Shown here: positions 23,424 through 45,521 of the stretch, in pieces
Layout: every line of letters starts with the position of its first letter
Position numbering within the stretch: the first letter of the stretch is position 1
Made by a program: the position numbers and the translations under genes
Notes under the pieces: generated by a model
Database searches by the model: none
The model's input: the letters and a program-made list of their open reading frames with translations, nothing else
Told to the model about the DNA's origin: nothing
Source: an uncultured archaeon
Lineage (GTDB): Archaea; Nanobdellota; Nanobdellia; Pacearchaeales; GW2011-AR1
Direction: 5' to 3'
Length of the DNA stretch: 64,000 nt
Assembly (NCBI GenBank): GCA_963845205.1
Contig: CAWJRC010000002.1
Span: forward strand, 13,928 to 77,927

Positions 23424-24791
23424 TCATAAATCAAATCCATAAAGCCTACGATCTCCTTTTTTTCTCATTTGATCATAAAGATTTTTGTATTTATTTCTAA
23501 CCTTTAGATCCTTACTATCTTCATTAATCATTTTATCAAAATTTTTTGAATAATACACTTTAGGGTATTCTACGGCAATTGCAAAAAGCTTTTGTAGATT
23601 AGATATTTGATTCTTATAGTCTAGTGTAAAGTTAAGGATGCTTGAATCAAAAAAGCTGGAATTTAAATCTTCAAAGTTTCCAGAATAAAAATTATTTTTT
23701 ACACAAAATTCTCCAAGTCTTGTTCCGGGATAAGGCTGAAAAATTGAAGCCCATGCATAATCCGGTTTACATTTTATATTAAGTTCAAGAGTTTCTATAT
23801 CATTTTCTATTGAACCAGTCGGAATACCTAGGATGTTTTGCAACATAAATTTTATATCATATTTTTTTAATAGATTACATGCATCATAAATCTGCTCCTT
23901 ACTCATCTTTCTATTAAGAATTTCATTTCTTAATTGATCATTTGCCGCTTCTGCTGCTAAATGCACACTATAACATCCAGCCTTTTTTAATAAACTTACT
24001 TTCTCTTCTGTAAGTGTATTAGCTCTTACATGACAATGAAAAGGAAAATTTATTTTTTTGGAGTATTCCCTAGAAAAATTTTCAAGCCATTCTTTATTAA
24101 GTGTAAAGGTATCATCTTGAAAATAAATAAATCTAGTAGGAGAATTATTGATTACTTCAGAGATTTCTTCAATAAAAGAATCAACATCTCTATGTCTTAC
24201 TCTTTGGCCTTTCCCCTTGTATAAATCTGAATATAACTCATTAAAACAATAGGAACAATTAAATGGGCAGCCGCGTGAAGAGATAAAATGTTTTATTGGA
24301 TCGTTTTTTATATCAGAATATTTGAAGACCAAATCCCTATCTGGAAAAGCCAAATTGTCCAAATCGGATAAGTTTCTTAATTCATTAGAAATAATTTTAT
24401 TCTCTTTTTTAATTGTTAAACTCGGAATTCTTTCATTATAAGGATCATTTAGAAAATCAACAAAGGCATTTTCTCCTTCACCTCTACAGATGACATCAAC
24501 TCCTTCTTCTTTAATAAACTCAGGGAAAAAGGTTGGATGCGAGCCCCCAAAGATACTAATACTGTTATTAATCTTTTTAATATCCCTATTTAATCCAGAA
24601 TAAAATTTCTGATCTCCTGTAAGTACACTATATGCCAAAATCTCGGGTTTATATTCCAGGATTTTTTTTTCAAGATTTTCAGAAGTTAGAACTATATCTA
24701 CTTCATGATTTTCTTTTTTTGCAGAAGAAGAAAGATACATTATCCCTAAAGGTTCTATTTTAAATGGTTTGGTTACAAACAATACTTTCAT
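23424..24791 (-). CDS. class B (B12-binding domain) radical SAM enzyme
   Basis: N-terminal Rossmann/B12-like domain (ILAYSVLT..IFGGSHPT..CRGEGE), then SSRGCPFNCSYC (CxxxCxxC). Confidence 0.85.
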   Translation of the reverse strand: MKVLFVTKPFKIEPLGIMYLSSSAKKENHEVDIVLTSENLEKKILEYKPEILAYSVLTGDQKFYSGLNRDIKKINNSISIFGGSHPTFFPEFIKEEGVDVICRGEGENAFVDFLNDPYNERIPSLTIKKENKIISNELRNLSDLDNLAFPDRDLVFKYSDIKNDPIKHFISSRGCPFNCSYCFNELYSDLYKGKGQRVRHRDVDSFIEEISEVINNSPTRFIYFQDDTFTLNKEWLENFSREYSKKINFPFHCHVRANTLTEEKVSLLKKAGCYSVHLAAEAANDQLRNEILNRKMSKEQIYDACNLLKKYDIKFMLQNILGIPTGSIENDIETLELNIKCKPDYAWASIFQPYPGTRLGEFCVKNNFYSGNFEDLNSSFFDSSILNFTLDYKNQISNLQKLFAIAVEYPKVYYSKNFDKMINEDSKDLKVRNKYKNLYDQMRKKGDRRLYGFDL

Positions 24792-24914
24792 TTCTTTAAC
24801 TTCCTATTTTGAAGTTATAAATTTTATGTAGGTAAGATTTAACGCATATTTATCCTAATTGAGATATATTATTCATACATAAATCCTTTAAAAGGAGAAT
24901 AAGAAGGCTTTGAT

Positions 24915-26795
24915 ATGAAAGCATTAATTTTAGCCGGCGGAAGGGGCTCTAGGTTAAAGGAAATAACAAAAGAGAAAAATAAGAGTATGATCTCTCTTTT
25001 TGAAAAGCTATTGATAGAATATAACTTAGACCATGCAGTTGAAGCAGAAGTTAGTGAAATAGTTATTGTAATTGGGTATGAAGGAGAAAAAATAAAAAAA
25101 GAAGTTGGAAAAGAATACAAAGGGATCCCGATAAAATATGCTATACAAAAAGAACAGAGAGGGCTCGTAAATGCCATTGAATGTTCAAAAGAAGTTATTG
25201 GGACTTCAGATTTTATTTTAATGCTTGCTGATGAAATAATCCCTAAAGCGGATATAAACGGAATGATAAAAAGGTTTAAGGAAGAAAAGTTATTTGCTCT
25301 TTGTGGAATTGTTTATGAAGAAGATAAGTCCAGTATAGGAAAAACATATTCAGCAATGATTAATGAAGAAGGAAGAATTTTCAGGCTTATTGAAAAGCCC
25401 AAAGTTGCTATAAACAAAATAAAAGGTACAGGACATTGTGTTTTAAGAAATGAAATTTTTGATTATATTGAAAGAACCCCTATAAATGCGAATAGAGGAG
25501 AAAAGGAATTAGTTGATTTAATTCAAGTTTCTATTGATGACGGAAAAAGAGTGTATATTCATAAAATAAGTGAGGGGGGATATGTGAATGTTAATACAAA
25601 AGAGGATTATAATCTGGCAAAAGAATTAATACAAAAAAATAATCCACGAGTTTTACTTGTTCATACCCAAATGAAGTATATTGGGGGGGCAGAGTTATTG
25701 ATTGTTGAATTAGCTAATGAGTTAACCAAAAAAGGGATAAAGAATGATATTCTTGCATTATCAAAATCAAAAGAAGTTCAAGGTAAGCTAATCAATACAG
25801 AGATAATCATCCCTCTGCATAATATAAATCTTGAACCCCCAGGATTCAAGAATAGTAAGGATATTTTGGAATTTATAAAGATATACAGAAAAGAAATAAG
25901 AAAAATGATTGGAGAATATGATGTAATCAATTTTCATAATTTTCCTGCCACTTGGACCTTATTCCCAAAGAAAAAACCATGTGTTTGGATGCTCAATGAA
26001 CCTCCCAATTTGTGGAGTAGACCCAATGCGAGTATTATTTTAAAATTCTTAAATAACTTAAGAAATTACTTAGATAAAAAAATTGTGAAAAATTCTGTTG
26101 ATATAATTTGTGTTGCGGATGAATTTAACAAAGAAAGATGCAGAATAAGATATAAAAAAAATCCGAGAATAATTTACTACGGGGTAAATTACGATTTTTT
26201 CTCAAAAGGAAATGCAAAAAAGGCAATTAAAAAATTTGGTATTAAAGATAAGTTTGTTATTGTTCAGTCGGGGATGATAACAAAACAAAAAAATCAGATG
26301 GGGAGCATAAATTCATTTAATAAAATAAAAGAAAAAATACCTAATGCTGTACTTGTTCTTGCAGGAGAGGCTGCAGATAAAGAGTATAGGACTGAAATTG
26401 AAGATTATTTAAAAAGAAATAATTTACAAAAAAAGGTTCTTTTTACTGGAAATCTTACAAGAGACGATTTGAGGGATTTATACAAAGCTAGTGATGTAGG
26501 AATTTTTCCTGTCGGTAAACAAGGAGGCTGGCTTTCTCCTTTTGAATTATTATGTTCCGGAAATCCTATAATTGTATCGGAAGAAATGGGTGCTGCATCA
26601 ATAATCAAAAAGTTTAATCTTGGGATCACAACAAAAAATTATTCTGAAGCATTACTTGAAGTTTACGAAAAAAACAAAGAATACAAAATTCAGGCAAAAA
26701 AATCTGCAGAATTTATAAAGAAAAGCCTAGGGTGGAATGTGTTTACGGATAAGATGATCCAAGCATACAAAGATGCCTGGAAAATGCACAGTTAA
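24915..26795 (+). CDS. fusion protein: sugar-1-phosphate nucleotidylyltransferase (N-terminal) plus GT4-type glycosyltransferase (C-terminal)
   Basis: MKALILAGGRGSRLKE plus LADEI in the first ~235 aa. A GT-B/GT4 pattern (GGAELLIVELANEL...GWLSPFELLCSGNPIIVS) follows from about aa 245. Confidence 0.8.
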   Translation: MKALILAGGRGSRLKEITKEKNKSMISLFEKLLIEYNLDHAVEAEVSEIVIVIGYEGEKIKKEVGKEYKGIPIKYAIQKEQRGLVNAIECSKEVIGTSDFILMLADEIIPKADINGMIKRFKEEKLFALCGIVYEEDKSSIGKTYSAMINEEGRIFRLIEKPKVAINKIKGTGHCVLRNEIFDYIERTPINANRGEKELVDLIQVSIDDGKRVYIHKISEGGYVNVNTKEDYNLAKELIQKNNPRVLLVHTQMKYIGGAELLIVELANELTKKGIKNDILALSKSKEVQGKLINTEIIIPLHNINLEPPGFKNSKDILEFIKIYRKEIRKMIGEYDVINFHNFPATWTLFPKKKPCVWMLNEPPNLWSRPNASIILKFLNNLRNYLDKKIVKNSVDIICVADEFNKERCRIRYKKNPRIIYYGVNYDFFSKGNAKKAIKKFGIKDKFVIVQSGMITKQKNQMGSINSFNKIKEKIPNAVLVLAGEAADKEYRTEIEDYLKRNNLQKKVLFTGNLTRDDLRDLYKASDVGIFPVGKQGGWLSPFELLCSGNPIIVSEEMGAASIIKKFNLGITTKNYSEALLEVYEKNKEYKIQAKKSAEFIKKSLGWNVFTDKMIQAYKDAWKMHS

Positions 26796-27916
26796 TTCCT
26801 TTTTATCTCATAGGCCGGACATAAGGCGCATTCATTCGGACATTTATTATTTCTTATCATTTTTCTCATTTGTTTATAACGGGGAGAATACCAAATTTCC
26901 CTAAATGGTTTTTCCAATGCATTTCCCAAAGACATTTTTTTCTGCCATTCTCTTGCATTAGCTTCATTTTGGCCACAACAAGGAGTGACGTCTCCTGTAA
27001 CAAAAATAAACGGCATAATATATTCCTTACAATTATTTATTGAAGGTTTTTTTTCCAATCCTTCAGTTTTTTGTTTTGCACACATATTAATAGTGATTGG
27101 AATTTTATACTTTGCAGCTTTTTCTTTTATTTTCTTCACATATTCCCCGTCAATTTCAACAGCATATTTTTCTGCTTCTTTAAATGAATGAAGAAGGGGG
27201 GTTACTAAAACTTCGCCTATATCCGTATTAAGAGAATTAAGAAAGTCCAAGAAATCAAGTAGTTCATCTTTTGATTTACTTGTTATGATGTAATGAAAGT
27301 TAAGTATAGGAAATCTTTTCTTCATTTGTTTTTTTAGGCGGACAAAAGTTCTTAGATTTTTTTCTATTTTTGTATAATCACTTCCAACGCAAACCTTTTC
27401 AAATGAATTTTTTGATGCTCCATATGTAGAGATAAACTGAAAATCAGGACCTATTTTTATAAGTTCTTTAATTTCATCATCATTTTTGAAATGTGCAAAA
27501 TGATCAAAAACTTCTATAATAGTCCCCTTTGATTTTGCATATGCAAGCATTTTATGATAGTCTTTGTTTAAATAAGAAGAACCAATTCCAGTAAGCCCCA
27601 GCCATTTAGGCCTTCCAAAATCATCGAAAATTTTTTTGAATTGCTCGAATGTCATATTTTTTGGAGGTTCTTTCCAATAAGTATGTTCACAACAAATGCA
27701 TTTAAGGTTACAGACAGTCGTTGGTTCTATTTCCAAAAAAGGAGGAAATAAATCAATTCCTAATTTAGGGAATAATTTATTCAAAAGAAATGAAGCAGTT
27801 TTTCTATTCCACCAAAGAGGATAAACCCAGAACATATTACCAATTTCACGGAATCTTCCAGCAAGAATAAAATTAGAAAAGAGCTTTAATTTGTGAGAAA
27901 AAGACATGGTGGGCAT
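26792..27916 (-). CDS. radical SAM / SPASM-domain protein
   Basis: EPTTVCNLKCICC cluster. The C-terminal Cys-rich region (VTPCCGQ...CPNECALCPAY) is typical of SPASM. Confidence 0.8.
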   Translation of the reverse strand: MPTMSFSHKLKLFSNFILAGRFREIGNMFWVYPLWWNRKTASFLLNKLFPKLGIDLFPPFLEIEPTTVCNLKCICCEHTYWKEPPKNMTFEQFKKIFDDFGRPKWLGLTGIGSSYLNKDYHKMLAYAKSKGTIIEVFDHFAHFKNDDEIKELIKIGPDFQFISTYGASKNSFEKVCVGSDYTKIEKNLRTFVRLKKQMKKRFPILNFHYIITSKSKDELLDFLDFLNSLNTDIGEVLVTPLLHSFKEAEKYAVEIDGEYVKKIKEKAAKYKIPITINMCAKQKTEGLEKKPSINNCKEYIMPFIFVTGDVTPCCGQNEANAREWQKKMSLGNALEKPFREIWYSPRYKQMRKMIRNNKCPNECALCPAYEIKRN

Positions 27917-27935
27917 TTATAAGGAAGAAAAAAGG

Positions 27936-27954
27936 GGTTTTTAAGGATTATTAA
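27936..27954 (-). promoter_or_regulatory. conserved 19-nt element (GGTTTTTAAGGATTATTAA on the plus strand) ~25 nt upstream of the minus-strand start at 27916
   Basis: An identical 19-mer recurs at 35339-35357, at the same distance from the minus-strand start at 35319. Confidence 0.45.
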
Positions 27955-27989
27955 TTAATGCTAGATATAGGTAAATAATATATTTTAGA

Positions 27990-28009: not shown

Positions 28010-28028
28010 GATTTTATTGAACTTTATT

Positions 28029-29099
28029 ATGCCCAAAGTTTTGGTTACTGGAGGATGTGGATTTTTAGGAAGTCATATTTGTGAACTTTTCAAAAACAAA
28101 GGATGGGAAGTTATTGCATACGACAATATGACAAAGAATGAATTCTCTAGAAATACTTATATGAAACCCGAATCAAGGGAACATAATAAAAAATTTCTTG
28201 AATCTCTTGGAGTTAAAATAATTGTTGAGGATATAAGAGATAAAGAAACATTGATGAAATATTGCGAAGGAGCAGATTATATCTGCCACACTGCTGCACA
28301 ACCTACAATGACTATGTCTTGGGAAGACCCAGTTTTGGATTTTACAACAAATGTCGTAGGAACTTTTAATGTTCTGGAGTGTGCGAGAAAATACAATATC
28401 CCCATTGCGTCATGTAACTCTATTCATTGTTATGGACCAGACAAAATAAATTCGGAATTAAAAGAATTCACAACAAAATTATTTGGATGTGACTGTGAAA
28501 TTAACAGGTATGTAAGAGAACCTGTTTCAATAAATGAAAATGAACCGATCTTACAGGGAGTTGTAACTCCCTTGCATGCATCAAAAATGTCTGCTGAAAA
28601 TTATATTCGATGTTATATAGACACTTTTAAGATTAAGGCAGCAAGCTTCAGGCTTACGGGAATTTATGGACCGAATCAATTTGGGGGGGAGGATCATGGG
28701 TGGGTTGCTAATTTTGCCATAAGAAATGTTTTAGATCTACCGTTAACAGTATTTGGAACAGGAAAACAATTAAGGGATATACTTTATGCGACTGATGTTG
28801 CTGAAGCTTTCTGGTGTTTTTATCAAAATCCTGTTCCAGGAATTTACAATATTGGCGGGGGAGAAAAAACAATGATTTCGCTTATTGAATGTATAAAATT
28901 AATCGAAAAAATTACAGGAAAAAAATCAAATTTAAAATTTGACAAGGAAAGGTTTGGTGATTTAAGATATTATGTTTCAGATACAAGTAAAGCAAAAAAA
29001 ATTCTGGGATGGGAACCCAAAGTCCTTCCTGATGAAGGGGTGAGGAGATTAATTGAATGGATTAATAAAAACAGAACCTTATTCTACAATTCTGTATAA
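28029..29099 (+). CDS. SDR-family NAD-dependent sugar epimerase (CDP-paratose 2-epimerase-like)
   Basis: VLVTGGCGFLGSH, a SKMSAE-type catalytic region, and YGPNQFGGEDHGWVANF..GTGKQLRDILY. Confidence 0.75.
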   Translation: MPKVLVTGGCGFLGSHICELFKNKGWEVIAYDNMTKNEFSRNTYMKPESREHNKKFLESLGVKIIVEDIRDKETLMKYCEGADYICHTAAQPTMTMSWEDPVLDFTTNVVGTFNVLECARKYNIPIASCNSIHCYGPDKINSELKEFTTKLFGCDCEINRYVREPVSINENEPILQGVVTPLHASKMSAENYIRCYIDTFKIKAASFRLTGIYGPNQFGGEDHGWVANFAIRNVLDLPLTVFGTGKQLRDILYATDVAEAFWCFYQNPVPGIYNIGGGEKTMISLIECIKLIEKITGKKSNLKFDKERFGDLRYYVSDTSKAKKILGWEPKVLPDEGVRRLIEWINKNRTLFYNSV

Positions 29100-29123
29100 T
29101 TTTATAAACCAATACTAAAAAAC

Positions 29124-30659
29124 ATGGAGAAAAAAATTTTATTTTTGAAAGCGAGAACAGGAATGGACGACCCTTCCCCCCCAATGTCATTCAGTTTTCT
29201 TGGAAGGATAGCTAAAGAAGAAGGATTTAAAGTTCTTGTAGAAAATTTAAATGCACAATACAATCAAAAAACACACAAAGACATTATCGAATTGATTAAA
29301 AAAGAAAATCCGGACATTGTTGGAGTTCATATGTTCACGAATGCTTCAAGAGATTCTTACAGATTAATAGAAGATATTCGTCCAGTTTGCAGATTGATAA
29401 TAGCAGGAGGACCACACCCAACCGCAAGACCAGAAGAAGTCCTTGAAAGAGGCGTTGATATAGCATTTATGGGGGAGGCTGAAATTTCATTCAGGAATTT
29501 CCTTAAGACTTTCCTTAAAAATAAAAATTTTTCAAAAGTCAAGGGTATTGCATACAAAGAAAACGGAAAGGTTATAATAACCAAACCTGAAAGCATAGTA
29601 GAAGACTTGGATGAAATTCCGATGCCCGAAAAAGAAGTACACAGAATAAGCGATTATGCAAGAATAAAAGATGAAATAAACAATTTAGGGCAGATCTTAT
29701 CGACAAGAGGATGCCCGGGAAGATGTGCATATTGTTTCTCTTTATTCAGCAAATGTTACAGATGCGTATCGGCAAAAAATGTTTTCAAAGAAATAAATGT
29801 TCTTCATGATAAATACGGAATAAATTACATAAATTTTATTGATGATGCGTTTACAATTAACAAAAAAAGGCTTTACGAATTATGTGACTTGCTAAAATCC
29901 AGCAATTTAAAGATAGGATGGAGCTGTTGCACTAGAGTTGATTTTCTTGATCAGGAAATGATAAAAAAAATGAAAGAGGCAGGATGCGACATGATTACTT
30001 TTGGAATTGAAAGCGCTCTTTCAAGTACTTTAAAAAAGGTTAAGAAAACAGCAAATCCAAAATGGTATATCCAACATGCAGATGATTTGTTAAACTGGGG
30101 TTATGATGAAGGAATCCGTGTGGGGGTTAATATCCTTACTGGCTTCCCTTGGGAAACTGCAGAGGACATGAAGAAAATGCAGAGATATATTAATCACATA
30201 AAGAAAAAAGTAACGCAAGGTTTTTATGGGGGGATATTACAGCCACAGCCAGGAACAGACATTTACAATGAATATGCAAAGAAATATGGTTTTGAGGATT
30301 GGTGGCTTTATAAAAAACCATTATTCAAAGATGATTACAGACCTTTCTTCATGGCATATTATAACCCTTACTGGGATCATTTACATAATAATTTTTTTAA
30401 GTTTGATAAAAAAAAGTTCAAAGAAATCGATAAACTTTACAAATTGATGGGAAAATGGAATCTATACATTATAACAAAAAGAAGATTCAAAAATGCATTA
30501 GTGGTCAATACTATGTACATATCTATTTTTTTATTGAGCAAGATTTCTGTTTTGCTTTTTGATATCTCCCCTGATTTAGAAAAAAAATTGATGGAAGGCT
30601 TGAAAAAATTCAGCTATAGATTTAAATTCAGAAAAGGTACAGAGAATAAAAAATTGTGA
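29124..30659 (+). CDS. class B (B12-binding domain) radical SAM enzyme
   Basis: IVGVHMFT..IIAGGPHPT..FMGEAE, then STRGCPGRCAYC. Confidence 0.85.
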   Translation: MEKKILFLKARTGMDDPSPPMSFSFLGRIAKEEGFKVLVENLNAQYNQKTHKDIIELIKKENPDIVGVHMFTNASRDSYRLIEDIRPVCRLIIAGGPHPTARPEEVLERGVDIAFMGEAEISFRNFLKTFLKNKNFSKVKGIAYKENGKVIITKPESIVEDLDEIPMPEKEVHRISDYARIKDEINNLGQILSTRGCPGRCAYCFSLFSKCYRCVSAKNVFKEINVLHDKYGINYINFIDDAFTINKKRLYELCDLLKSSNLKIGWSCCTRVDFLDQEMIKKMKEAGCDMITFGIESALSSTLKKVKKTANPKWYIQHADDLLNWGYDEGIRVGVNILTGFPWETAEDMKKMQRYINHIKKKVTQGFYGGILQPQPGTDIYNEYAKKYGFEDWWLYKKPLFKDDYRPFFMAYYNPYWDHLHNNFFKFDKKKFKEIDKLYKLMGKWNLYIITKRRFKNALVVNTMYISIFLLSKISVLLFDISPDLEKKLMEGLKKFSYRFKFRKGTENKKL

Positions 30660-36683: not shown

Positions 36684-36733
36684 ATTAAATCAGGGATATA
36701 AAAATTTAAATAAGGGGATAATAAAAAGTTACT

Positions 36734-38353: not shown

Positions 38354-38407
38354 TTTTTATAGAAATTAACAATAATCTTTATAAATTGTTATTTATTCCG
38401 AAAAAGA

Positions 38408-39835
38408 ATGGAAAAAAAGGATAAAGTAATGTTAATGTATCCTAATTTTGACTGGACAGATTCAATGGCTAGAACAAAATGGCATATTCATCCATATAAT
38501 CTTGGACTTTTGGCGTCAATGATCAGAGACGAATATGATGTAAGCATAATTGATGCTGGAATGGAAAATTTTTCTAAAGATGAATTTGCAAAAATGATTA
38601 GAGAAACTAAACCCAATGTTTTAGGAATTTCAATATGCACTAATGAATACATTAACTCCGGGTTAATAGCGGCAGAAGTAGCAAAAGAAAATAATCCAGA
38701 AACGAAAATCTTTGCGGGGGGAGTAGGTGTTACAACAAATCCTAACTCATTGATGAAAAGTAATTATATTGACGGTGTAATTATAGGAGAAGGGGAACAT
38801 GTTTTTAAGGGACTTTGCGACTTTTTAAGAAAAGATGGCTCTTTTCCAGATAAGGGCGCATTATATAAAAAAGATAATAGAATAATTGGTTCTGAAAAAT
38901 TTGATTTTTTACAAGATCTAGATTCGCTTCCATTACCTGCTTATGATCTTGTTGATTTTATGGGATATGCAACAACAATTCAAAGAGAAAGTGTAGACAG
39001 GCCAAGAAAAATGCCTTATGCACGGACTATTACTTCAAGGGGATGTCCGTATAACTGCTGTTTCTGTGAAGTCGCTTCTATATCGGGGAGAAAAGTAAGA
39101 TTTAGGAGTTTGGAAAAGGTTACTGAAGAAATTGAATGGTTAATAAAAAATTACGGGATAAAAGCTCTTTCATTTGATGATGATAATTTAACAGTCAATA
39201 AAGACAGAGCAAAGAAATTGTTTAAAACAATGATTGAAAGAAAATATGATCTTAAATGGAATAATCCTTCAACTGCAATATTTACTCTTGATGACGAAAT
39301 GCTGGATTTAATGAAAGAAAGCGGATGTAGTTTTTTGGGGACTGCAATTGAAAGTGGAGTTCAGAGAGTATTAACAGATATTATTCATAAGCCATTAAAT
39401 TTAGAAGATGTTAAAGGAACAATGAAAAAGATAAAAGAAAGAGGAATAGACGTCTCTTCTAATTTTATTGTGGGATTCCCTGGAGAAACATGGGAAGAGA
39501 TAAGACAGACTTTTAGATATGCAGAAGAATTAGATCCAGATTATTGCAAATTTTTTATTGCTACTCCTCTTCCAAATACAGAGCTTTCCAGAATTGCAAA
39601 AGAAAAAAATATTTTTAAAAATGATTTCGATTTTAATAAACATCTTTGGACTGATGGACAGATAGATACTTCTGAATTTAGGCATCAGGATTTGAAGATT
39701 TTAAGAGCTTACGAATGGGACAGAATAAATTTCTCAAGCGAAAACAAAAGAAAAAAAATAGCGCAAATGATGGACATAAGTGAAGATAGATTAAATGAAA
39801 TTAGAAAAGAAACATTAAAAATTGCCAATCCATAA
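38408..39835 (+). CDS. class B (B12-binding domain) radical SAM enzyme
   Basis: VLGISICT..FAGGVGVT..IIGEGE, then TSRGCPYNCCFC. Confidence 0.85.
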   Translation: MEKKDKVMLMYPNFDWTDSMARTKWHIHPYNLGLLASMIRDEYDVSIIDAGMENFSKDEFAKMIRETKPNVLGISICTNEYINSGLIAAEVAKENNPETKIFAGGVGVTTNPNSLMKSNYIDGVIIGEGEHVFKGLCDFLRKDGSFPDKGALYKKDNRIIGSEKFDFLQDLDSLPLPAYDLVDFMGYATTIQRESVDRPRKMPYARTITSRGCPYNCCFCEVASISGRKVRFRSLEKVTEEIEWLIKNYGIKALSFDDDNLTVNKDRAKKLFKTMIERKYDLKWNNPSTAIFTLDDEMLDLMKESGCSFLGTAIESGVQRVLTDIIHKPLNLEDVKGTMKKIKERGIDVSSNFIVGFPGETWEEIRQTFRYAEELDPDYCKFFIATPLPNTELSRIAKEKNIFKNDFDFNKHLWTDGQIDTSEFRHQDLKILRAYEWDRINFSSENKRKKIAQMMDISEDRLNEIRKETLKIANP

Positions 39836-39837
39836 AA

Positions 39838-40797
39838 ATGAAAAACGAAAAGGTATTAATAATAAAAACGGGATACTCTGAAATTCTTGATGACAGGAAT
39901 AATTCAAGATGGGTTAGTTTGGGGGATGTATTAAGAACAACTCCCCTACTTAATCTTTACAAAGATAAATTAGTAACTTGGGTAAGTGATATTGAAGCTT
40001 TTCCTTTACTTGAAGGAAATCCATACATACACCGACTTCTACCTTATGATTTCACAACTGCGTTGCAATTAGAATCTGAAGAATTTGATACGGTCATAAA
40101 TCTGGAAAAAGTTCCAGGAATCTGCGCCCTTTCTGATAAAATAAAAGCAAGAAGGAGCAGATATGGATTTAGATTTAATAGTCAAACAGGGGAAGCAGAG
40201 GCATATGATAAAGCAATTGATATCTTAACAGTCAGCTCTGATCCAAAGGAGAAAAAAGAGAACAAAAGGACGATACAAGAGCTGCTTTTTGAGATGGTCG
40301 GAGAAAAATGGAACGGGGAAGAGTATATATTAGGATATAAACCAAAAAAAGGAACGAGATATGATATTGGACTTAATACTAAAACTGGCCAGAAATGGCC
40401 CACAAAAGCATGGTCTAATGAAAAGTGGAATTCTTTGGAAGAACGATTAAAAAAAGAAGGATTCAATGTTTCCAGACAAGATAAACAAAAAAAAGGAATT
40501 TTAACAGATATAAAAAAATATATTGACTGGCTTAATTCCTGTGATGTTATAGTCAGCAATGACAGTTTAGGATTACACTTGGGAATAGCGTTGAAAAAAA
40601 AAGTCATAGGCTTGTTCGGACCAACTCCTTACAAAGAAATTTTTTTTTATGGATTAGGAAAAGCTGTTTATCCCGAACCATCTCCAGAATGCATGCCCTG
40701 TTTTAAAGGAGAATGTGAAAGAGGAAAGAATTGCATGGAAGATATTCAAATAGAAAAAGTTTATGAAGAAATTATAAAACAAAAAAGCATTAAATAA
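39838..40797 (+). CDS. GT9 family glycosyltransferase (heptosyltransferase-like)
   Basis: KVLIIKTG..LGDVLRTTPLL N-domain and a CDVIVSNDSLGLHLGIALKKKVIGLFGPT C-domain, as in RfaC/RfaF-type enzymes. Confidence 0.75.
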   Translation: MKNEKVLIIKTGYSEILDDRNNSRWVSLGDVLRTTPLLNLYKDKLVTWVSDIEAFPLLEGNPYIHRLLPYDFTTALQLESEEFDTVINLEKVPGICALSDKIKARRSRYGFRFNSQTGEAEAYDKAIDILTVSSDPKEKKENKRTIQELLFEMVGEKWNGEEYILGYKPKKGTRYDIGLNTKTGQKWPTKAWSNEKWNSLEERLKKEGFNVSRQDKQKKGILTDIKKYIDWLNSCDVIVSNDSLGLHLGIALKKKVIGLFGPTPYKEIFFYGLGKAVYPEPSPECMPCFKGECERGKNCMEDIQIEKVYEEIIKQKSIK

Positions 40798-40838
40798 AAA
40801 GTTAGTAGAAGAGAGATAGGATTTTTAAGTATCTTTGT

Positions 40839-40858
40839 TACATAAATCTTTTTAAATA
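40839..40858 (+). promoter_or_regulatory. TACATAAAT element plus TATA box ~24 nt upstream of the ATG at 40878
   Basis: See 27990-28009. Confidence 0.45.
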
Positions 40859-40877
40859 GGTCCTTTTATGTTTGAAT

Positions 40878-41933
40878 ATGAACGGAACAGAGATAGATAA
40901 TCACAAATTGATGTATCATCCAAAAAGAGTTGAAGAATGGCTGGAAAAAAAAGATTGTTATCCAGTTTATGTTGAAATTGGCCCTACAAACAGATGCAAC
41001 CACCAATGTATTTTCTGTGCATTAGACTGGATTAAACATGGAACCCATGATATTGAAAAAAATGTGATGCTTTCCTCATTAAAGGATATGTCAGAACACG
41101 GAGTAAAATCAGTAATGTTTGCGGGAGACGGAGAACCATTGTTGCATAAGGATATAAATGAATTCGTAAGCAAATCTAAACAGTATGGATTAGATGTTTC
41201 TGTCACAACTAATGGTGTTCTTTTCACTGAAAAAAAAATAGAGGAATGTCTTCCTTGCCTTTCATGGATAAGGTTCAGTGTAGATGCAGGAAGTCCTGAA
41301 AAATATTCTTTAATACACAAAACAAATCCCGCAGACTTTAATCGGGTAATAACAAATATAGAAAACGCAGTCAATTTCAAGAAGTCAAACAAATTGGAAA
41401 CTACAATCGGAATTCAATTTTTAATGATACCCCAAAATGTTCCTGAACTAGAAAAACTTGTTCATATTTCAAAAGATATTGGCGCCGATAATTTGCAGAT
41501 AAAACCTTATTCACATCATCCCGGAAGTTCAAATGATTTAGTTATTGATACAAAAGAGTATAACAAATTTGAAAAGCAGCTAAAAGATTTAGGCTCAAAA
41601 GATTTTGAAATTTTATTCAGGAAAAAAACTATTGAAAGGATGGAAGAAGGAATAAATTATCCAAAATGTTACGGGCTTCCTTTTTTTGCGCTGATAGATG
41701 CAAGGGCGAATGTGATTCCATGCAATTTATTTTATAATAATGATGAATTTGTATATGGTAATTTATATGATCAAACTTTCAGTGAAATTTGGGAAGGAGA
41801 AAAAAGGAAAGGAGTTTTAAAAAAAATAGAAGAAAGGGGAATTTCAGAATGTAGAGAAGGCTGCAGACTTGATCCTATAAATAGATATCTCCACAGACTA
41901 GAAAATCCCCACCCCCATGACAATTTTATATAA
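40878..41933 (+). CDS. radical SAM enzyme (paralog of 43085..44200)
   Basis: GPTNRCNHQCIFC cluster and GDGEPLL. N-terminal HKLMYHPKRVEEW and C-terminal HDNFI are shared with the paralog. Confidence 0.8.
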   Translation: MNGTEIDNHKLMYHPKRVEEWLEKKDCYPVYVEIGPTNRCNHQCIFCALDWIKHGTHDIEKNVMLSSLKDMSEHGVKSVMFAGDGEPLLHKDINEFVSKSKQYGLDVSVTTNGVLFTEKKIEECLPCLSWIRFSVDAGSPEKYSLIHKTNPADFNRVITNIENAVNFKKSNKLETTIGIQFLMIPQNVPELEKLVHISKDIGADNLQIKPYSHHPGSSNDLVIDTKEYNKFEKQLKDLGSKDFEILFRKKTIERMEEGINYPKCYGLPFFALIDARANVIPCNLFYNNDEFVYGNLYDQTFSEIWEGEKRKGVLKKIEERGISECREGCRLDPINRYLHRLENPHPHDNFI

Positions 41934-41934
41934 A

Positions 41935-42564
41935 ATGGAAACAAAAAAATCAAAAGAAGAATTAATTGAATTTGAAAGCAGAATTGCAAAGTTATGGGAA
42001 GCTGCAAAAATACCTTATCCGGTTCATCTATGTGGGGGTAATGAAGAACAACTTATTGAAATTTTCAAAGACGTTAAGGAAGGAGATTATATCTTATCAA
42101 CACACCGTTCGCATTATCATTACCTTCTTGCAGGAGGAAATGAAGAAAATTTAGAGAAGATGATACTTGAAGGAAACAGTATGCATGTTTTTGATAAAAA
42201 ATTAAATTTTCTCACCTCTGCCATCGTTGCTGGAGTTCCCACAATAGCTGCAGGAATTGCCCTTGCATTAAAAAGAAAGGAAAGTGATAGGAAAGTGTGG
42301 TGTTTTGTTGGAGACGGCGCAGAGGATGAAGGACATTTTTATGAAGCAGTAAGATATGTCGACGGATTTGATTTGCCCTGCACATTTATTATAGAAGATA
42401 ATAATCGTTCTGTTGAGACCCCAAAAGCTGAGAGATATGGAAAATCTGAAATGATTTGGCCAAAATGCGTGAGAAGATATAATTATATTCCAAAATATCC
42501 CCATTCTGGGACAGGAAGTTTTGTAGATTTCAATGGAAAAAAGGCAGGAGGAAATAGTTTTTAA
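41935..42564 (+). CDS. TPP-dependent dehydrogenase E1 alpha-like subunit, short form (~209 aa)
   Basis: STHRSHYHYLLAGG plus a GDGAEDEG-x-IIEDNN thiamine-diphosphate motif. An alternative ATG at 41917 overlaps the upstream gene. Confidence 0.7.
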   Translation: METKKSKEELIEFESRIAKLWEAAKIPYPVHLCGGNEEQLIEIFKDVKEGDYILSTHRSHYHYLLAGGNEENLEKMILEGNSMHVFDKKLNFLTSAIVAGVPTIAAGIALALKRKESDRKVWCFVGDGAEDEGHFYEAVRYVDGFDLPCTFIIEDNNRSVETPKAERYGKSEMIWPKCVRRYNYIPKYPHSGTGSFVDFNGKKAGGNSF

Positions 42565-43088
42565 TGAAATACAAAGATGCTATTAAGCTGTCAATGGAAT
42601 ATCTTGCCAAAGATGAAAAAACTATTTTTATTGGATATAATGTAGGCTTCGGATCTCAAGGATACGGAACATTAAAAGGTATCCCAAAAGAGAAGAAAAT
42701 TGAAACTCCTTTAGCAGAAAATTTGATGATGGGGCTTGCTATGGGAATGGCTCTTGAAGGATATAGGCCAATAGTTTTTTTTGAGAGACATGATTTTATG
42801 TTAAATGCGTCTGACGGCATTGTTAATCATTTAAGTAAATTAGAAAAGATGTCAAAGGGGCAATTTAATCTTCCAGTTATTATAAGAGCAGTTATAGGCT
42901 CAAAAAGTCCTCTTTATCCCGGAGTTCAGCACATTCAAGATTTTACTGAAGCTTTTGAAAAGATGATAAATTTTCCAATTTACAGACCTGCAAATTCCGC
43001 AGAAATTGAAAAAATTTATAAAGAAGTAAAGGGGTTAAAAAAACCTGTAATGATAATAGAAGAAAAAGATTTATATGAACAAGAATGA
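42564..43088 (+). CDS. E1 beta-like (pyrimidine-binding domain only) subunit, short form (174 aa)
   Basis: KIETPLAENLMMGLAMGMALEGYRPIVFFERHDFMLNASDGIVNH matches the E1 beta / transketolase Pyr domain. No C-terminal domain. Overlapping start and stop codons on both sides. Confidence 0.7.
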   Translation: MKYKDAIKLSMEYLAKDEKTIFIGYNVGFGSQGYGTLKGIPKEKKIETPLAENLMMGLAMGMALEGYRPIVFFERHDFMLNASDGIVNHLSKLEKMSKGQFNLPVIIRAVIGSKSPLYPGVQHIQDFTEAFEKMINFPIYRPANSAEIEKIYKEVKGLKKPVMIIEEKDLYEQE

Positions 43089-44200
43089 CAAATGAATTAA
43101 TACTTGACGGACATAAACTTCTTTGGCATAAGGAAAGAGTTGAAGCTTGGCTTAGGGGGGAGAGAATCGCTCCTATAACCATAGACTGCGCTCTTACCAG
43201 AAGATGCAATTACAATTGTGTTTATTGTTATGGAAAATTACAGGCAAATGATGAAAAAAAGATGACAAAGGAGGTTATCTTCAGACTTCTTGATGACGCT
43301 GCAGAAATTGGAGTAAAGGGAATAAGCTTTGTAAGTGACGGAGAAAGTACGTGCTCTCCTTATTTGTACGAGGCAGTTGATCATGGAAAAAAGAACGGGC
43401 TTGATCTTGCTTTAGCAACAAATGGTTCATTGTTAAAAAAAGAAAATTTGGAAGGAATGTTAAAAGATCTTACATATATAAGATTTAATTTCTCAGCCGG
43501 AGAATCAAAAAGATACTCAGAAATTATGGGATGCAAAGAAGAGAATTTTTACAAGGTTATTGATACAATAAAAGAGAGCGTAAAAATAAAAAAAGAAAAA
43601 GGTTTGGATGTGACAATAGGTATGCAGATGGTACTGATGCCGCAATTTAAAGATCAGATTGTTCCTTTAGCAGAATTGGGTAAAAGATTAGGAGTGGATT
43701 ATCTAGTAATAAAACATTGCAGTGATGATGAAGAAGGCAAATTAGGAGTTAACTATGAAGGATATTTTCAGCCAGACTTAATTGAAAAAATAAAGATTGC
43801 AGAATCATTATCCGAACCAGACAAATATCTTGTAAAAGCCAAATGGTCAAAAATATTAAGCGGAGGAAAAAGAAAATATTCACAATGTTATGGCCCTCCT
43901 TTTATAATACAACTTTCAGGATCAGGATTAGTCGCACCTTGCGGAATGTTATTTAATGACCAATATAAAAAATTTCATATCGGAAATATAGCAGAAACTT
44001 CTTTTAAAGAGATATGGAAAAGTGATAAATATTGGGAAGTCATGGATTATATAGCTTCAGATAAATTTGACGCAAAGAAAGATTGCGGAACTTTATGCCT
44101 GCAGCATAAGGTCAATGAATTTTTATGGGACTTAAAAAACGGCGATGTTAGGTTGGAAAAATTAAATGGAGTTCCTCCACAACATATTAATTTTATTTAA
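43085..44200 (+). CDS. radical SAM enzyme (paralog of 40878..41933)
   Basis: ALTRRCNYNCVYC cluster, SDGEST, a C-terminal Cys-containing auxiliary-like region, and a QHINFI ending. Confidence 0.8.
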   Translation: MTNELILDGHKLLWHKERVEAWLRGERIAPITIDCALTRRCNYNCVYCYGKLQANDEKKMTKEVIFRLLDDAAEIGVKGISFVSDGESTCSPYLYEAVDHGKKNGLDLALATNGSLLKKENLEGMLKDLTYIRFNFSAGESKRYSEIMGCKEENFYKVIDTIKESVKIKKEKGLDVTIGMQMVLMPQFKDQIVPLAELGKRLGVDYLVIKHCSDDEEGKLGVNYEGYFQPDLIEKIKIAESLSEPDKYLVKAKWSKILSGGKRKYSQCYGPPFIIQLSGSGLVAPCGMLFNDQYKKFHIGNIAETSFKEIWKSDKYWEVMDYIASDKFDAKKDCGTLCLQHKVNEFLWDLKNGDVRLEKLNGVPPQHINFI

Positions 44201-44201
44201 A

Positions 44202-44624
44202 ATGAAAGTTAAAGAGGCATCAAAGATTATAATACTAAACGAAGAAAAAGAAATTCTGTTACAATTACGAGATGAAAAAAAAGATATCCCTTTCCCAGGA
44301 TATTGGGATTTTTTTGGTGGAAAAATCGAAAGAGGCGAAAACCCTCTTGAAACGATAAAGAGAGAAGCATATGAAGAAATTAATGTTGTACCCAGGAATA
44401 TAATCTTTTTAGGAAAAATTTATGTCCCAAAAAATAATCTTTCTCAAGAAAGCTGCAATAATTTCATGTTTAGAGGATATATCAATCAAACAGCTGAAAA
44501 TATAGATTTTTCCGAAGGACAGGGGGTTAGATACTTTGGGTTAAAGGAACTTAAAGGAATAAAATTTGTACATTTTTGGCTTGATTTTATAATAGAAAAT
44601 AAAGAGAAGATTTTTGGAGATTAA
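44202..44624 (+). CDS. Nudix hydrolase
   Basis: Nudix box GGKIERGENPLETIKREAYEEINV. ATG at 44202 immediately follows the upstream stop. Confidence 0.85.
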   Translation: MKVKEASKIIILNEEKEILLQLRDEKKDIPFPGYWDFFGGKIERGENPLETIKREAYEEINVVPRNIIFLGKIYVPKNNLSQESCNNFMFRGYINQTAENIDFSEGQGVRYFGLKELKGIKFVHFWLDFIIENKEKIFGD

Positions 44625-45521
44625 ATGAAACCTATTAAAATTAATCCAACATGCGAATATATTTCAGCATTTTTGACAATGAGATGCAACCTAAACTGCA
44701 GCTTTTGCCTTAATAGATTAAACAATTCAATCAATCGAAGCGGATTTAAGGAAATATCAGGAGAAGAATGGGTTAATGCACTTAACAGAATAGAATCAAG
44801 AAAAGATCTGCCGATAACATTCAGCGGAGGAGAACCTTTCCTTCATAATGACTTTATTTATATAATCAATAATTTAAAGCCAGAATTAAACATTGATATC
44901 TTGACTAATCTTTATCCTAATTCATTAGCACATAAAAACCGGCTTGAAAAATTTTTGAATGAAGTAAATCCTGAAAGAATTAAGAGAAAATCTCCTTATG
45001 CTTCAATTAGAGTTTCATATCATCCTGAACAGATGGAGGCAGAGGTTCTTATTGATAGTGTTAAAAAATTTAAGGAAAAGGGGTTTAGTATAGGGATATG
45101 GTCTGTTCTTTATCCAAGCCCAGAACAATTATCTGCAATAAATCAAATGCAGTTCAGATGCAGAGATGCAGGAATCGATTTTAGGCTTAAGGAATTTACC
45201 GGAGACTTTAACGGAACTCTTTATGGAGATTATTCAAAATACCCCAATTCTGTCCTGCAAAAAGAAACTAAAAAATGTTTATGCAAAACAGCGGAATTGT
45301 TAATAGGCCCAAATGCAGATGTTTACAAATGCCATAGAGATCTGTATGCTACAGAATTTCCCTTGGGGAATATTTCCAACCCAGAATTCCAAACAGAAAA
45401 TATTTTCAGAGAATGCTATAAATTTGGACAATGCCATCCATGCGACGTTAAAGTCAAAACAAATTACAAACAGCAACTTGGGCATACAAGTGTTGAAATA
45501 AAAGATATAGATAAAGATTAA
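44625..45521 (+). CDS. radical SAM enzyme (small, 298 aa)
   Basis: LTMRCNLNCSFC cluster and FSGGEPFLH. Confidence 0.8.
   Translation: MKPIKINPTCEYISAFLTMRCNLNCSFCLNRLNNSINRSGFKEISGEEWVNALNRIESRKDLPITFSGGEPFLHNDFIYIINNLKPELNIDILTNLYPNSLAHKNRLEKFLNEVNPERIKRKSPYASIRVSYHPEQMEAEVLIDSVKKFKEKGFSIGIWSVLYPSPEQLSAINQMQFRCRDAGIDFRLKEFTGDFNGTLYGDYSKYPNSVLQKETKKCLCKTAELLIGPNADVYKCHRDLYATEFPLGNISNPEFQTENIFRECYKFGQCHPCDVKVKTNYKQQLGHTSVEIKDIDKD

Follow-up and report, generated by a model that had tools for sequence, protein, structure and literature searches.

A predicted surface-glycan island with nine radical-SAM genes and a split TPP enzyme in a Pacearchaeota-like archaeon

Radical-SAM enzymes and the coupled TPP enzyme

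The window analyzed here, 64 kb of the approximately 375-kb contig CAWJRC010000002.1 from an uncultured archaeon of the Pacearchaeales, contains at approximately 13.7–47.1 kb an island predicted from its gene content to make a cell-surface glycan, either an N-glycan or an S-layer glycan, in a Pacearchaeota-like member of the DPANN archaea. Of the 21 genes that this island has between 23.4 and 45.5 kb, nine encode radical S-adenosylmethionine (radical-SAM) enzymes, and a split enzyme dependent on thiamine pyrophosphate (TPP) is encoded among them. These genes, with their Pfam profile scores in bits and the radical-SAM cluster motifs, are listed below in their order along the island.

23424–24791, minus strand: B12rSAM_1, radical-SAM gene 1; Radical_SAM 81.4, B12-binding 58.2; CPFNCSYC at aa 175
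26792–27916, minus strand: SPASM_1, radical-SAM gene 2; SPASM 45.9, Radical_SAM 30.9; CNLKCICC at aa 69; seven C-terminal Cys
29124–30659, plus strand: B12rSAM_2, radical-SAM gene 3; Radical_SAM 72, B12-binding 63.0; CPGRCAYC
32643–33710, plus strand: SPASM_2, radical-SAM gene 4; Radical_SAM 84.9, SPASM 56.6; CNLKCEMC at aa 65
36734–38353, plus strand: B12rSAM_3, radical-SAM gene 5; Radical_SAM 65.8, B12-binding 37.3; CPFQCTFC at aa 215
38408–39835, plus strand: B12rSAM_4, radical-SAM gene 6; Radical_SAM 99.2, B12-binding 63.3; CPYNCCFC
40878–41933 (start also given as 40872), plus strand: SPASM_3, radical-SAM gene 7; Radical_SAM 65.7, SPASM 31.1; CNHQCIFC at aa 42
41917–42564, plus strand: TPP enzyme, alpha (PP) subunit; E1_dh 72.6; 215 aa; GDG-x26-NN motif intact
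42564–43088, plus strand: TPP enzyme, beta (Pyr) subunit; Transket_pyr 49; 174 aa, Pyr domain only
43085–44200, plus strand: SPASM_4, radical-SAM gene 8; Radical_SAM 67.8, SPASM 33.2; CNYNCVYC
44625–45521, plus strand: rSAM_9, radical-SAM gene 9; 298 aa; Radical_SAM 38.9, Fer4_12 24.7; CNLNCSFC at aa 21

All nine open reading frames (ORFs), which a preliminary description had picked out as radical-SAM genes from the DNA letters, were reproduced in the ORF list, and their identity was borne out by profile searches with Pfam; the NCBIfam searches covered the nine ORFs and most of their neighbors. All exceeded the Pfam PF04055 gathering score, which is 29.5 (the weakest, SPASM_1, at 30.9 and the other eight at 38.9–99.2), and each had a single canonical CxxxCxxC motif in the N-terminal core. 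A six-frame scan of the window for ORFs of at least 150 aa found ten such motifs, all inside the nine ORFs, the tenth being the C-terminal SPASM motif of SPASM_1. A chance or compositional artefact was ruled out, the motif being restricted to these ORFs and the GC content across the island (30–34%) being the same as in the remaining window. Recent tandem duplication was also ruled out as the origin of the nine enzymes, since their pairwise identity is only 22–30%. The two AlphaFold2 (AF2) models considered, those of SPASM_4 and B12rSAM_2, had the expected radical-SAM fold and matched solved radical-SAM enzymes.

By architecture the set splits into four class-B enzymes, four SPASM/twitch enzymes and one short enzyme. 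The N-terminal cobalamin-binding-type domain previously assigned to four ORFs was found in all of them above the gathering score of PF02310 (32.1). The SPASM domain had been ascribed to two ORFs, 26792–27916 and 32643–33710; PF13186 (gathering score 21.5) was found in four, the additional ones being 40872–41933 and 43085–44200, so that among the three ORFs set aside as other types only rSAM_9 (44625–45521) retained that position, with six C-terminal cysteines and no Pfam SPASM match. Seven C-terminal cysteines were present only in SPASM_1. SPASM_2, SPASM_3 and SPASM_4 had a four-cysteine pattern, C-x17-C ... C-x2/3-C, and not the seven-cysteine SPASM arrangement; in the SPASM_4 family the invariant residues were C268, C286, C334 and C338. 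Such a pattern agrees with one auxiliary cluster, as in twitch domains, and presumably resembles that of BtrN.

A sequence search of the PDB returned AprD4 as the top solved relative of B12rSAM_2, B12rSAM_3 and B12rSAM_4, the three class-B enzymes tested, with E-values of 1e-17 for B12rSAM_3 and 5e-21 for B12rSAM_4; the latter also matched MgmA (9ccb, 4e-18) and TokK (8e-14). A fold search with the B12rSAM_2 model (pLDDT 90.9) retrieved TsrM, OxsB, AprD4 and MgmA alike (E 1e-19 to 1e-21), with CysS and TokK about equal, and thus did not separate methylases from the dehydratase AprD4 or from OxsB. Among the class-B subfamilies of NCBIfam (PhpK, Sden_1168, KedN5, HpnR, HpnJ, BchE, AprD4, MJ_0865 and ApyD) none was matched at its cut-off, the best scores being 173.7 against 575 for Sden_1168, 166.9 against 577.6 for HpnJ, 153.8 against 481 for BchE and 99 against 500 for AprD4. 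HpnJ was among the top NCBIfam matches of all four class-B enzymes (99–167 bits; 159 for B12rSAM_3). AprD4 is a sugar 1,2-diol dehydratase of class-B architecture that binds no cobalamin, and no other studied group of the class is as large as the C-methylases (PMC12931638). HpnJ acts on a hopanoid, and both HpnJ and the calditol synthase Cds contract the ring of a sugar on a lipid head group by radical-SAM chemistry (PMC13459092). With AprD4, HpnJ and the methylases all near the class-B enzymes of the island, methylation, deoxygenation and ring contraction are all possible reactions for them.

B12rSAM_2 had approximately 90 orthologues at 52–83% identity, after which the identity dropped to about 30%, and to judge from these sequences the family is essentially confined to Pacearchaeota and Nanoarchaeota. 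In public (JGI) annotation the family (protein clusters P0244, P0248, P0268, P0279 and others) is named anaerobic magnesium-protoporphyrin IX monomethyl ester cyclase (BchE), a label which, at a BchE score of 133.7 for B12rSAM_2 against the cut-off of 481, is very likely an over-annotation; automatic cyclase annotations of this type can be corrected accordingly. The C-terminus of B12rSAM_2 was modeled as long helices and included a hydrophobic stretch at aa 460–478 (VVNTMYISIFLLSKISVLL; Kyte-Doolittle 1.8), which may be a membrane anchor and as such would fit a lipid-linked glycan as the substrate. B12rSAM_3 had a cysteine-rich C-terminal tail (six Cys at aa 470–506) and orthologues at 79% identity in locus L101 and 51% in L003 and L021 (L numbers denote fetched relative loci, P numbers protein clusters, rSAM radical SAM and a double colon a gene fusion). 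B12rSAM_4, the first gene of a widely shared cassette, had orthologues at 59% in Pacearchaeota, 54% in Omnitrophota and 44–47% in Lachnospiraceae.

The top three PDB sequence matches of SPASM_3 were all sugar-acting enzymes, namely BtrN (7e-9), BlsE (1e-7) and DesII (6e-7). The SPASM_4 model (pLDDT 88.4, pTM 0.89) had DesII as its top fold match (E 1e-16, TM-score 0.60–0.67), followed by SuiB, SkfB, anSME, BlsE, viperin and MoaA; the substrate of DesII is a TDP-sugar. No gene of the island was more conserved than SPASM_4, which had more than 6000 homologues at E<1e-20 and 231 representatives at E<=1e-30 after clustering at 50%. Its best 120 homologues were 70–76% identical and, where their source was named, came from Nanoarchaeota, Paceibacterota, Wildermuthbacteria and Omnitrophota, all being labelled merely 'radical SAM protein'. 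Orthologues of rSAM_9 were present in L003 (68%), L102/L104 (62%) and the Omnitrophota locus L019 (49%); the PDB sequence search with rSAM_9 gave nothing informative. Orthologues of SPASM_1 were found in L104 (68%) and L103 (83%). The one in L103 (1980–4301, minus strand) is 773 aa long and split by an intein with Intein_splicing and LAGLIDADG homing endonuclease domains, which is unusual in a sugar-tailoring enzyme.

The TPP pair gave the alpha and beta subunits of pyruvate dehydrogenase E1 as top matches in both NCBIfam and the PDB, all under the cut-off; the 2-oxoacid dehydrogenase E1 models of NCBIfam scored 90.9 against 393.9 for alpha and 78.2 against 321 for beta. The beta subunit was devoid of the E1-beta C-terminal domain, and no E2 or E3 gene was found in Pfam scans of the island genes. 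Public gene calls start the alpha subunit at 41935. The stop of the beta subunit overlaps the start of SPASM_4 by 4 nt, and TPPβ::SPASM_4 fusions occurred in at least five clusters (P0004, P0030, P0050, P0063 and P0073); a GT2::SPASM_4 fusion, with a glycosyltransferase (GT) of family 2, was present in P0026. The nearest functional precedent, by analogy and itself of proposed function, would be AviB1/AviB2 (Pau11/Pau12), a stand-alone pair resembling E1 alpha and beta and proposed to form a C-4 acetyl branch on octoses and deoxysugars from pyruvate (PMC4753412).

Heptose and glycan-assembly genes

The remaining genes of the island, again in their order along the window, are as follows.

13682–16498, plus strand: AglB/STT3 oligosaccharyltransferase, left anchor; Pfam STT3 and STT3-PglB_core; WWDYG at aa 633–637; about 14 hydrophobic segments
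16482–17498, plus strand: AglH-like polyprenyl-phosphate N-acetylhexosamine-1-phosphate transferase; PF00953 Glycos_transf_4, 94.6 bits; weak MraY-family NCBIfam matches
17495–17905, plus strand: GtrA-like flippase; Pfam GtrA_DPMS_TM
17874–18602, minus strand: small GT2; Pfam Glycos_transf_2; resembles polyprenyl-phosphate glycosyltransferases of the ArnC/AglJ type
18599–20137, minus strand: PMT_2 transferase of the GT-C fold; Pfam PMT_2
20147–21114, minus strand: HldD, ADP-glyceromanno-heptose 6-epimerase, frameshifted; A7 run at window positions 20955–20961
21117–22043, minus strand: PfkB-family kinase resembling D-glycero-beta-D-manno-heptose-7-phosphate kinase (HldE domain I); TIGR02198 rfaE_dom_I
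22105–22980, minus strand: GT2b, GT2 glycosyltransferase; Pfam Glycos_transf_2 and Glyco_tranf_2_3; 57% orthologue in L104
24915–26795, plus strand: sugar-1-phosphate nucleotidyltransferase::GT4 fusion of 626 aa; NTP_transferase aa 2–215, Glyco_transf_4/Glycos_transf_1 aa 256–583
28017–29099, plus strand: SDR1, sugar-nucleotide epimerase/dehydratase of the short-chain dehydrogenase/reductase (SDR) type; Pfam Epimerase 145 bits
30656–31834, plus strand: GT4 glycosyltransferase; Pfam
31859–32596, plus strand: MT1, class-I methyltransferase; Pfam
33699–34322, minus strand: MT2, class-I methyltransferase; Pfam
34330–35319, minus strand: SDR2, 4,6-dehydratase-like; Pfam
35424–36683, plus strand: Gtf3_C-type GT-B glycosyltransferase; no local Pfam match, relatives carry PF26337 Gtf3_C
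39838–40797, plus strand: GT9, heptosyltransferase family; Pfam Glyco_transf_9 48.2 bits; weak heptosyltransferase I/II NCBIfam matches
44166–44624, plus strand: NUDIX hydrolase; Pfam NUDIX 59.4 bits; Nudix box GKIERGENPLETIKREAYEEI intact; public gene calls start at 44202
45518–47074, minus strand: Wzx/MOP-family flippase, right end; Pfam Polysacc_synt, Polysacc_synt_3 and MurJ; 14 hydrophobic segments

The glycosyltransferases of the island thus comprise two GT2, two GT4, one GT9, one Gtf3-like GT-B and one PMT_2 GT-C enzyme, besides which it encodes SDR sugar-nucleotide enzymes, two class-I methyltransferases, ADP-heptose genes, a NUDIX hydrolase, the split TPP enzyme, Wzx, the AglH-like enzyme and AglB. 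The genes at 35424–45521 are co-directional and tightly packed, with gaps of at most 81 nt, which is consistent with an operon; over the whole island the intergenic gaps do not exceed approximately 120 nt, except for a 129-aa ORF at 23031–23420. The first 11 kb of the window hold a block of ribosomal-protein genes with SecY, then prefoldin alpha, and SecD/SecF follow downstream of the island. These markers, AglB with its WWDYG motif, the AglH-like enzyme and Wzx, together with nearest genomes from Pacearchaeota and Nanoarchaeota, agree with the earlier view of an archaeal glycosylation island, and the flanking genes named there (AglB/AglH-like and GT2 on the left, a Wzx-like flippase on the right) were seen again in the Pfam scans. 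The interleaved GT4, GT9, SDR and methyltransferase genes were likewise found, the exception being a separate nucleotidyltransferase, which is the N-terminal domain of the 626-aa GT4 fusion. The former inventory had missed the TPP enzyme, the NUDIX hydrolase, the Gtf3-like glycosyltransferase and the ADP-heptose genes (PfkB and HldD); the TPP enzyme and the link to heptose give the strongest hints at the chemistry of the island.

The heptose link in the window consists of the repaired HldD, the heptose-7-phosphate-kinase-like PfkB and GT9. The N-terminal GGAGFIGS piece of HldD and the remainder of the gene (20147–20968, called as an SDR) lie in different frames owing to a one-base deletion; with one A added to the A7 run the protein has 324 aa and scores 376.5 bits with TIGR02197 against the cut-off of 274.6. 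Possible explanations of the frameshift are an error in the assembly, a pseudogene and slippage-prone phase variation. The PfkB protein scored 331.9 bits (E 3e-99) with TIGR02198, slightly under the cut-off of 345. Repaired HldD excepted, none of the neighbors of the radical-SAM genes that were scanned reached an equivalog cut-off in NCBIfam.

The AglH-like enzyme, by its family, likely starts the glycan on the carrier, and the GtrA/GT2/PMT_2 genes (17495–20137) look like a three-part set for glycosylation outside the membrane. The nucleotidyltransferase::GT4 protein, whose top NCBIfam matches were AglF/RmlA-like, is fused in the same way in L103 (66%) and L104 (56%). SDR1 scored 141 bits as a dTDP-glucose 4,6-dehydratase-like protein, under the cut-off, and had a 76% orthologue in L103. 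Orthologues of GT9 were present at 51–65% in L003, L007, L019, L102 and L103, and an orthologue of the NUDIX hydrolase in L102/L104. The Gtf3-like protein had no PDB or NCBIfam match; its 153 homologues all belonged to Pacearchaeota, Nanoarchaeota or unnamed archaea, many with PF26337 and few with PF13439 in public annotation, and the presence of PF26337 in the family identifies 35424–36683 as a GT-B glycosyltransferase.

Recurrence of the island and of its cassette

The island is modular, and related DPANN genomes carry islands built from its modules, each with 9–12 radical-SAM genes. The density of such genes is therefore characteristic of the lineage and not peculiar to this genome, and the uniqueness that had been implied for the island was overstated. 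The nearest locus in a species-level genome was that of a Candidatus Pacearchaeota metagenome-assembled genome (MAG), with protein identities of 51–72%. Loci L104 and L102 represent one marine Pacearchaeota population (overlap 99.97% over 9.6 kb) and encode, at 52–68% identity, orthologues of GT2b, the nucleotidyltransferase::GT4 fusion, SPASM_1, B12rSAM_2, GT4, MT1, SPASM_2, MT2, rSAM_9, NUDIX, SDR2, SPASM_4, SPASM_3, GT9 and the Gtf3-like enzyme, and at 41–46% a short TPP pair. GT4, MT1, SPASM_2 and MT2 are adjacent there in the same order, with SDR2 two genes further on. Within 21.5 kb, L104 by itself encodes nine radical-SAM enzymes; joined with L102, the region of about 33 kb encodes twelve, along with two TPP pairs, two NUDIX proteins and one DegT aminotransferase. 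The island proteins of these two loci were also found on dozens of contigs, those from Tara Oceans samples among them.

A Nanoarchaeia contig (L103) has the order NTP::GT4–SPASM_1–SDR1–B12rSAM_2–GT4–B12rSAM_4–GT9 at 62–83% identity. It also encodes, inside the island (13662–14696, minus strand), a DUF362 protein with a 4Fe-4S ferredoxin domain, which might supply the radical-SAM enzymes with electrons; no counterpart of this protein was noticed in the window. The same slot beside SecD is occupied in a further related archaeon, L101 (1–21263, GCA_902386025.1), by partly different cargo, including FkbH-like, ACPS, 2-oxoacid_dh acyltransferase and MaoC proteins and an 870-aa DegT-aminotransferase::B12::radical-SAM fusion, which suggests a hypervariable glycan island.

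About a third of the island is an uncharacterized cassette common to other ultra-small microbes. Its quartet, rSAM–TPPα–TPPβ–rSAM, was also found in bacteria of the candidate phyla radiation (CPR), in Omnitrophota and in Lachnospiraceae, mostly beside HldE and GmhA. Eighty metagenome loci were mapped by tblastn, and in the 25 that extend at least 6 kb upstream of the SPASM_4 homologue the genes accompanying it were counted, as follows.

TPP alpha and beta subunits: 24 of 25 loci
HldE: 19 of 25
SDR: 18 of 25
small GT2: 18 of 25
GmhA: 17 of 25
SPASM_3-family radical SAM: 15 of 25
class-B radical SAM: 10 of 25
GT9: 5 of 25

The gene order in L018, labelled Paceibacterota, is SDR–HldE–GmhA–GmhB–rSAM–TKα–TKβ–GT2–SPASM_4–AglB, the TPP pair being transketolase-like (TK) and the heptose genes under equivalog cut-offs. 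In the Omnitrophica locus L019 it is YfhO...GT9–rSAM–E1α–E1β–GT2–SPASM_4–MT–GT2–rSAM_9-like, and a Lachnospiraceae MAG (L005) has rSAM–TKα–TKβ–SPASM_4 in a cluster with genes for the synthesis of 3'-phosphoadenosine 5'-phosphosulfate. The window pair shares with the L018 pair only the TPP motif (36% over 59 aa), and in some loci a transketolase-like pair and a short E1-like one occur together.

Two of these loci have further unusual neighbors. In the gut Firmicute L005 (1–15508) the quartet adjoins ATP sulfurylase, adenosine 5'-phosphosulfate kinase and weak sulfotransferase-like proteins, suggesting a sulfated product in the Lachnospiraceae. In L018 an archaeal-type AglB/STT3 (11114–13621; TIGR04154 565 bits against the cut-off of 450) comes straight after the cassette on a 276-kb contig that also encodes MreB and PilM and whose proteins are labelled Paceibacterota (CPR) at NCBI, which suggests either that a CPR bacterium has an oligosaccharyltransferase of archaeal style or that the contig was mis-binned.

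Proposed pathway and alternative readings

The reading we favor, at a probability of roughly 0.6, is a surface-glycan island in which the TPP enzyme coupled to SPASM_4, together with the radical-SAM enzymes, builds a branched or chain-extended and further tailored sugar; its product is probably a novel, heavily modified sugar. In the proposed pathway, nucleotide-activated sugars would be made at the beginning, one of them probably ADP-glycero-manno-heptose, and SDR dehydratases/epimerases and radical-SAM enzymes would then remodel them, giving carbonyl or radical intermediates. SPASM_3 and SPASM_4, taken as sugar-acting because they are closest to BtrN, BlsE and DesII, would abstract hydrogen from the sugar or nucleotide-sugar, leading to oxidation, elimination or rearrangement. 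The minimal E1-like TPP enzyme would then, together with SPASM_4, add a C2 unit, probably from pyruvate, to the carbonyl intermediate, resulting in a branched or chain-extended sugar as proposed for AviB1/AviB2. Further tailoring by the class-B enzymes (C-methylation, deoxygenation or ring contraction) and by the two class-I methyltransferases might follow, after which the GT9, GT4, GT2 and Gtf3-like enzymes would assemble the glycan on the polyprenyl carrier begun by the AglH-like enzyme. Finally, Wzx would flip the glycan, and AglB and the GtrA/GT2/PMT_2 trio would attach sugars to surface proteins outside the membrane. Sugar supply, assembly, flipping and attachment rest on well-established family functions; remodeling, C2 transfer and class-B tailoring are put forward as hypotheses.

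Several observations weigh against this reading. A tblastn search of the 64-kb window with the L018 proteins found no GmhA, GmhB or HldE adenylyltransferase, and this gap, together with the frameshift in HldD, means that the heptose branch may be incomplete, encoded elsewhere or decaying. The TPP pair beside SPASM_4 is not of one type: L018 and L005 have a transketolase-like pair, L019 a long E1-like one and the window a short E1-like one. One conserved reaction is not guaranteed, and the transketolase-like versions could simply provide sedoheptulose-7-phosphate. The SPASM_4 fold matches the peptide maturases SuiB, SkfB and anSME nearly as well as the sugar enzymes, at TM-scores that are moderate (0.6–0.67). 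None of the nine radical-SAM enzymes reached the cut-off of any NCBIfam model, so each reaction assignment rests on distant similarity. The co-occurrence loci, moreover, were chosen by similarity to the SPASM_4 of the window and are hence biased to close relatives.

The preliminary description had proposed a heavily C-methylated glycan, made through cobalamin-dependent C-methylation by the four class-B enzymes in the manner of GenK, GenD1 and Fom3. This is possible, albeit not favored over the alternatives. All four enzymes combine PF02310 with the radical-SAM core, the B12rSAM_2 model matches the methylases TsrM, MgmA, CysS and TokK (E 1e-16 to 1e-21), methylases are the largest studied group of the class (PMC12931638), and the P- and C-methylase families Sden_1168, PhpK and MJ_0865 were among the top NCBIfam matches. 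However, these methylase scores were all far under the cut-off (for example 173.7 against 575), the best solved relative of B12rSAM_2, B12rSAM_3 and B12rSAM_4 is AprD4, a diol dehydratase that does without cobalamin (PMC12931638), and the ring-contracting HpnJ scores equally with the methylases (PMC13459092). The fold search placed AprD4 and OxsB on the same footing, and the window gives no sign that cobalamin is available to the organism. That the TPP pair might be a mere housekeeping-type transketolase supplying sedoheptulose-7-phosphate, with no chemical tie to the radical-SAM enzymes, we consider unlikely. The L018 alpha subunit does score 207 bits on the transketolase model of NCBIfam and that of L005 141 bits on Pfam Transketolase_N, and such pairs cluster with GmhA and HldE, users of sedoheptulose-7-phosphate; the window pair, in contrast, is a minimal E1-like core of 215+174 aa sharing with the L018 pair the TPP motif alone, the gene of its beta subunit overlaps SPASM_4, the two being fused in the clusters named above, and the window has no GmhA to use sedoheptulose-7-phosphate. 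Loci with pairs of both types indicate, in addition, that their roles are not redundant.

It is very unlikely that the substrate of the SPASM/twitch enzymes is a peptide or protein (S-layer protein, pilin or a peptide resembling ribosomally synthesized and post-translationally modified peptides, RiPPs) and that they are merely co-located with glycosylation genes, even though SPASM domains are commonest in peptide maturases, the fold search returned SuiB, SkfB, anSME and CteB-type enzymes (E 1e-10 to 1e-12), and the top NCBIfam match of all four was the metalloenzyme maturase W_rSAM_matur, under its cut-off. Sugar-acting enzymes came first for SPASM_3 in the PDB and for SPASM_4 in the fold search, the partners conserved over the 25 loci are sugar-nucleotide genes and glycosyltransferases, as in the GT2::SPASM_4 fusion, and Pfam scans of the island found no protease, transporter or leader-binding (RiPP recognition element) gene. 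A RiPP cluster was rejected as the principal explanation, given the sugar-enzyme partners and gaps that leave no room for a precursor gene except in the 129-aa ORF. Production of a diffusible glycoside (aminoglycoside- or nucleoside-like), or modification of membrane lipids, in place of a protein-linked glycan is highly improbable. Such products would agree with the antibiotic pathways from which the closest solved relatives AprD4, BtrN, DesII and BlsE come, with the modification of archaeal and bacterial lipid head groups by the radical-SAM enzymes Cds and HpnJ (PMC13459092) and with the hydrophobic C-terminal helix of B12rSAM_2, but the island is bracketed by AglB, the AglH-like enzyme and Wzx and holds the GtrA/GT2/PMT_2 set, Pfam scans gave no aminocyclitol synthase, resistance gene or antibiotic-type exporter, and in relatives the cassette adjoins STT3 or YfhO surface transferases.

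The reading of a radical-SAM- and TPP-dependent surface-glycan pathway can be extended into a doubtful, more specific form, in which SPASM_4 and its coupled or fused TPP enzyme would catalyze an undescribed C–C bond formation on a nucleotide-heptose (a radical combined with a TPP carbanion), giving a branched or higher-carbon sugar. This sugar, elaborated by the other seven radical-SAM enzymes of the island, would mark the surfaces of the ultra-small episymbionts (DPANN, CPR and Omnitrophota) as a signature that they share and exchange horizontally.

Compared with known systems, the island contains all the elements that define an archaeal Agl locus as judged from the sequence, namely AglB with WWDXG, a polyprenyl-phosphate initiating transferase and a flippase. 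It resembles the clusters of Haloferax, Methanococcus and Sulfolobus in its WWDYG AglB, AglH-like enzyme, GT2/GT4, SDR, class-I methyltransferases and a flippase by aglB; unlike these, it adds the nine radical-SAM genes and the TPP enzyme. Islands of AglB-linked glycans with tailoring enzymes and radical-SAM tailoring of sugars in antibiotic pathways are both already known. DesII, BtrN and BlsE (twitch/SPASM-like) and AprD4, GenK and Fom3 (class-B) share folds and cluster motifs with the island enzymes, the solved enzymes that come closest to SPASM_3, SPASM_4 and the class-B group being DesII, BtrN, BlsE and AprD4, at 15–18% identity in structural alignments. The cut-offs of the corresponding families, however, were not reached here (rSAM_desII 52.6 against 450, rSAM_BlsE 44.5 against 400, AprD4 99 against 500), and those enzymes belong to actinomycete antibiotic clusters, in contrast to the archaeal surface-glycan island. 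The TPP pair shares with AviB1/AviB2 its stand-alone E1-like form without E2/E3 and a sugar-nucleotide cluster with 4,6-dehydratase-like SDRs, a likeness of architecture and context, but its subunits are far shorter (215+174 aa), have no E1-beta C-terminal domain and are coupled or fused to a radical-SAM enzyme.

HldD (repaired), the HldE-kinase-like PfkB and GT9 have counterparts in the bacterial ADP-heptose pathway of lipopolysaccharide and S-layers with WaaC/WaaF, and relatives of the cassette adjoin homologues of HldE, GmhA and GmhB; the window differs in having no GmhA, GmhB or adenylyltransferase domain. The searched literature gave no radical-SAM or TPP enzyme in a known heptose pathway. 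With HpnJ and Cds the island would have in common radical-SAM chemistry on the sugar of a membrane-anchored carrier, although the HpnJ scores of its class-B enzymes (99–167) are far under the cut-off of 577.6 and no hopanoid or glycerol dialkyl glycerol tetraether (GDGT) genes are present in the island. The N-glycosylation papers retrieved by a full-text search, a 2024 N-glycosylation review among them, contained no mention of 'radical SAM', and searches combining radical SAM with DPANN, CPR, heptose, N-glycan or capsule yielded neither the cassette nor the island, the only precedents being AviB1/B2, AprD4 and HpnJ/Cds. The earlier statement that no characterized pathway matches the locus therefore held, with no NCBIfam cut-off reached and no archaeal N-glycan paper on radical-SAM enzymes found. 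Against the curated families and the searched literature, no description was found of a radical-SAM-loaded surface-glycan pathway, of the heptose-tied rSAM–TPPα–TPPβ–rSAM quartet or of the TPPβ::rSAM fusion.

Most DPANN archaea and CPR bacteria live as episymbionts and are uncultured. Their surface glycans mediate host contact; we know of nothing on the structure of these glycans. It is against this background that a reduced genome devotes nine of 21 genes in the 23.4–45.5 kb region to oxygen-sensitive radical enzymes, a design repeated in relatives, and that SPASM_4 is kept at 70–76% identity across two domains of life, with thousands of homologues nearly always accompanied by a TPP enzyme and heptose genes. 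The island therefore offers a testable entry to new sugar chemistry and a possible glycan marker of these lineages.

Beyond the right end of the island, three tRNA genes stand in a row (Gly-TCC, Arg-CCT and Leu-AAG; window 50035–50322) next to the mechanically called SecF ORF (49126–50091). The tRNA-Gly gene overlaps the 5' end of this ORF, which has a GTG start, and the true SecF start is thus probably further downstream.

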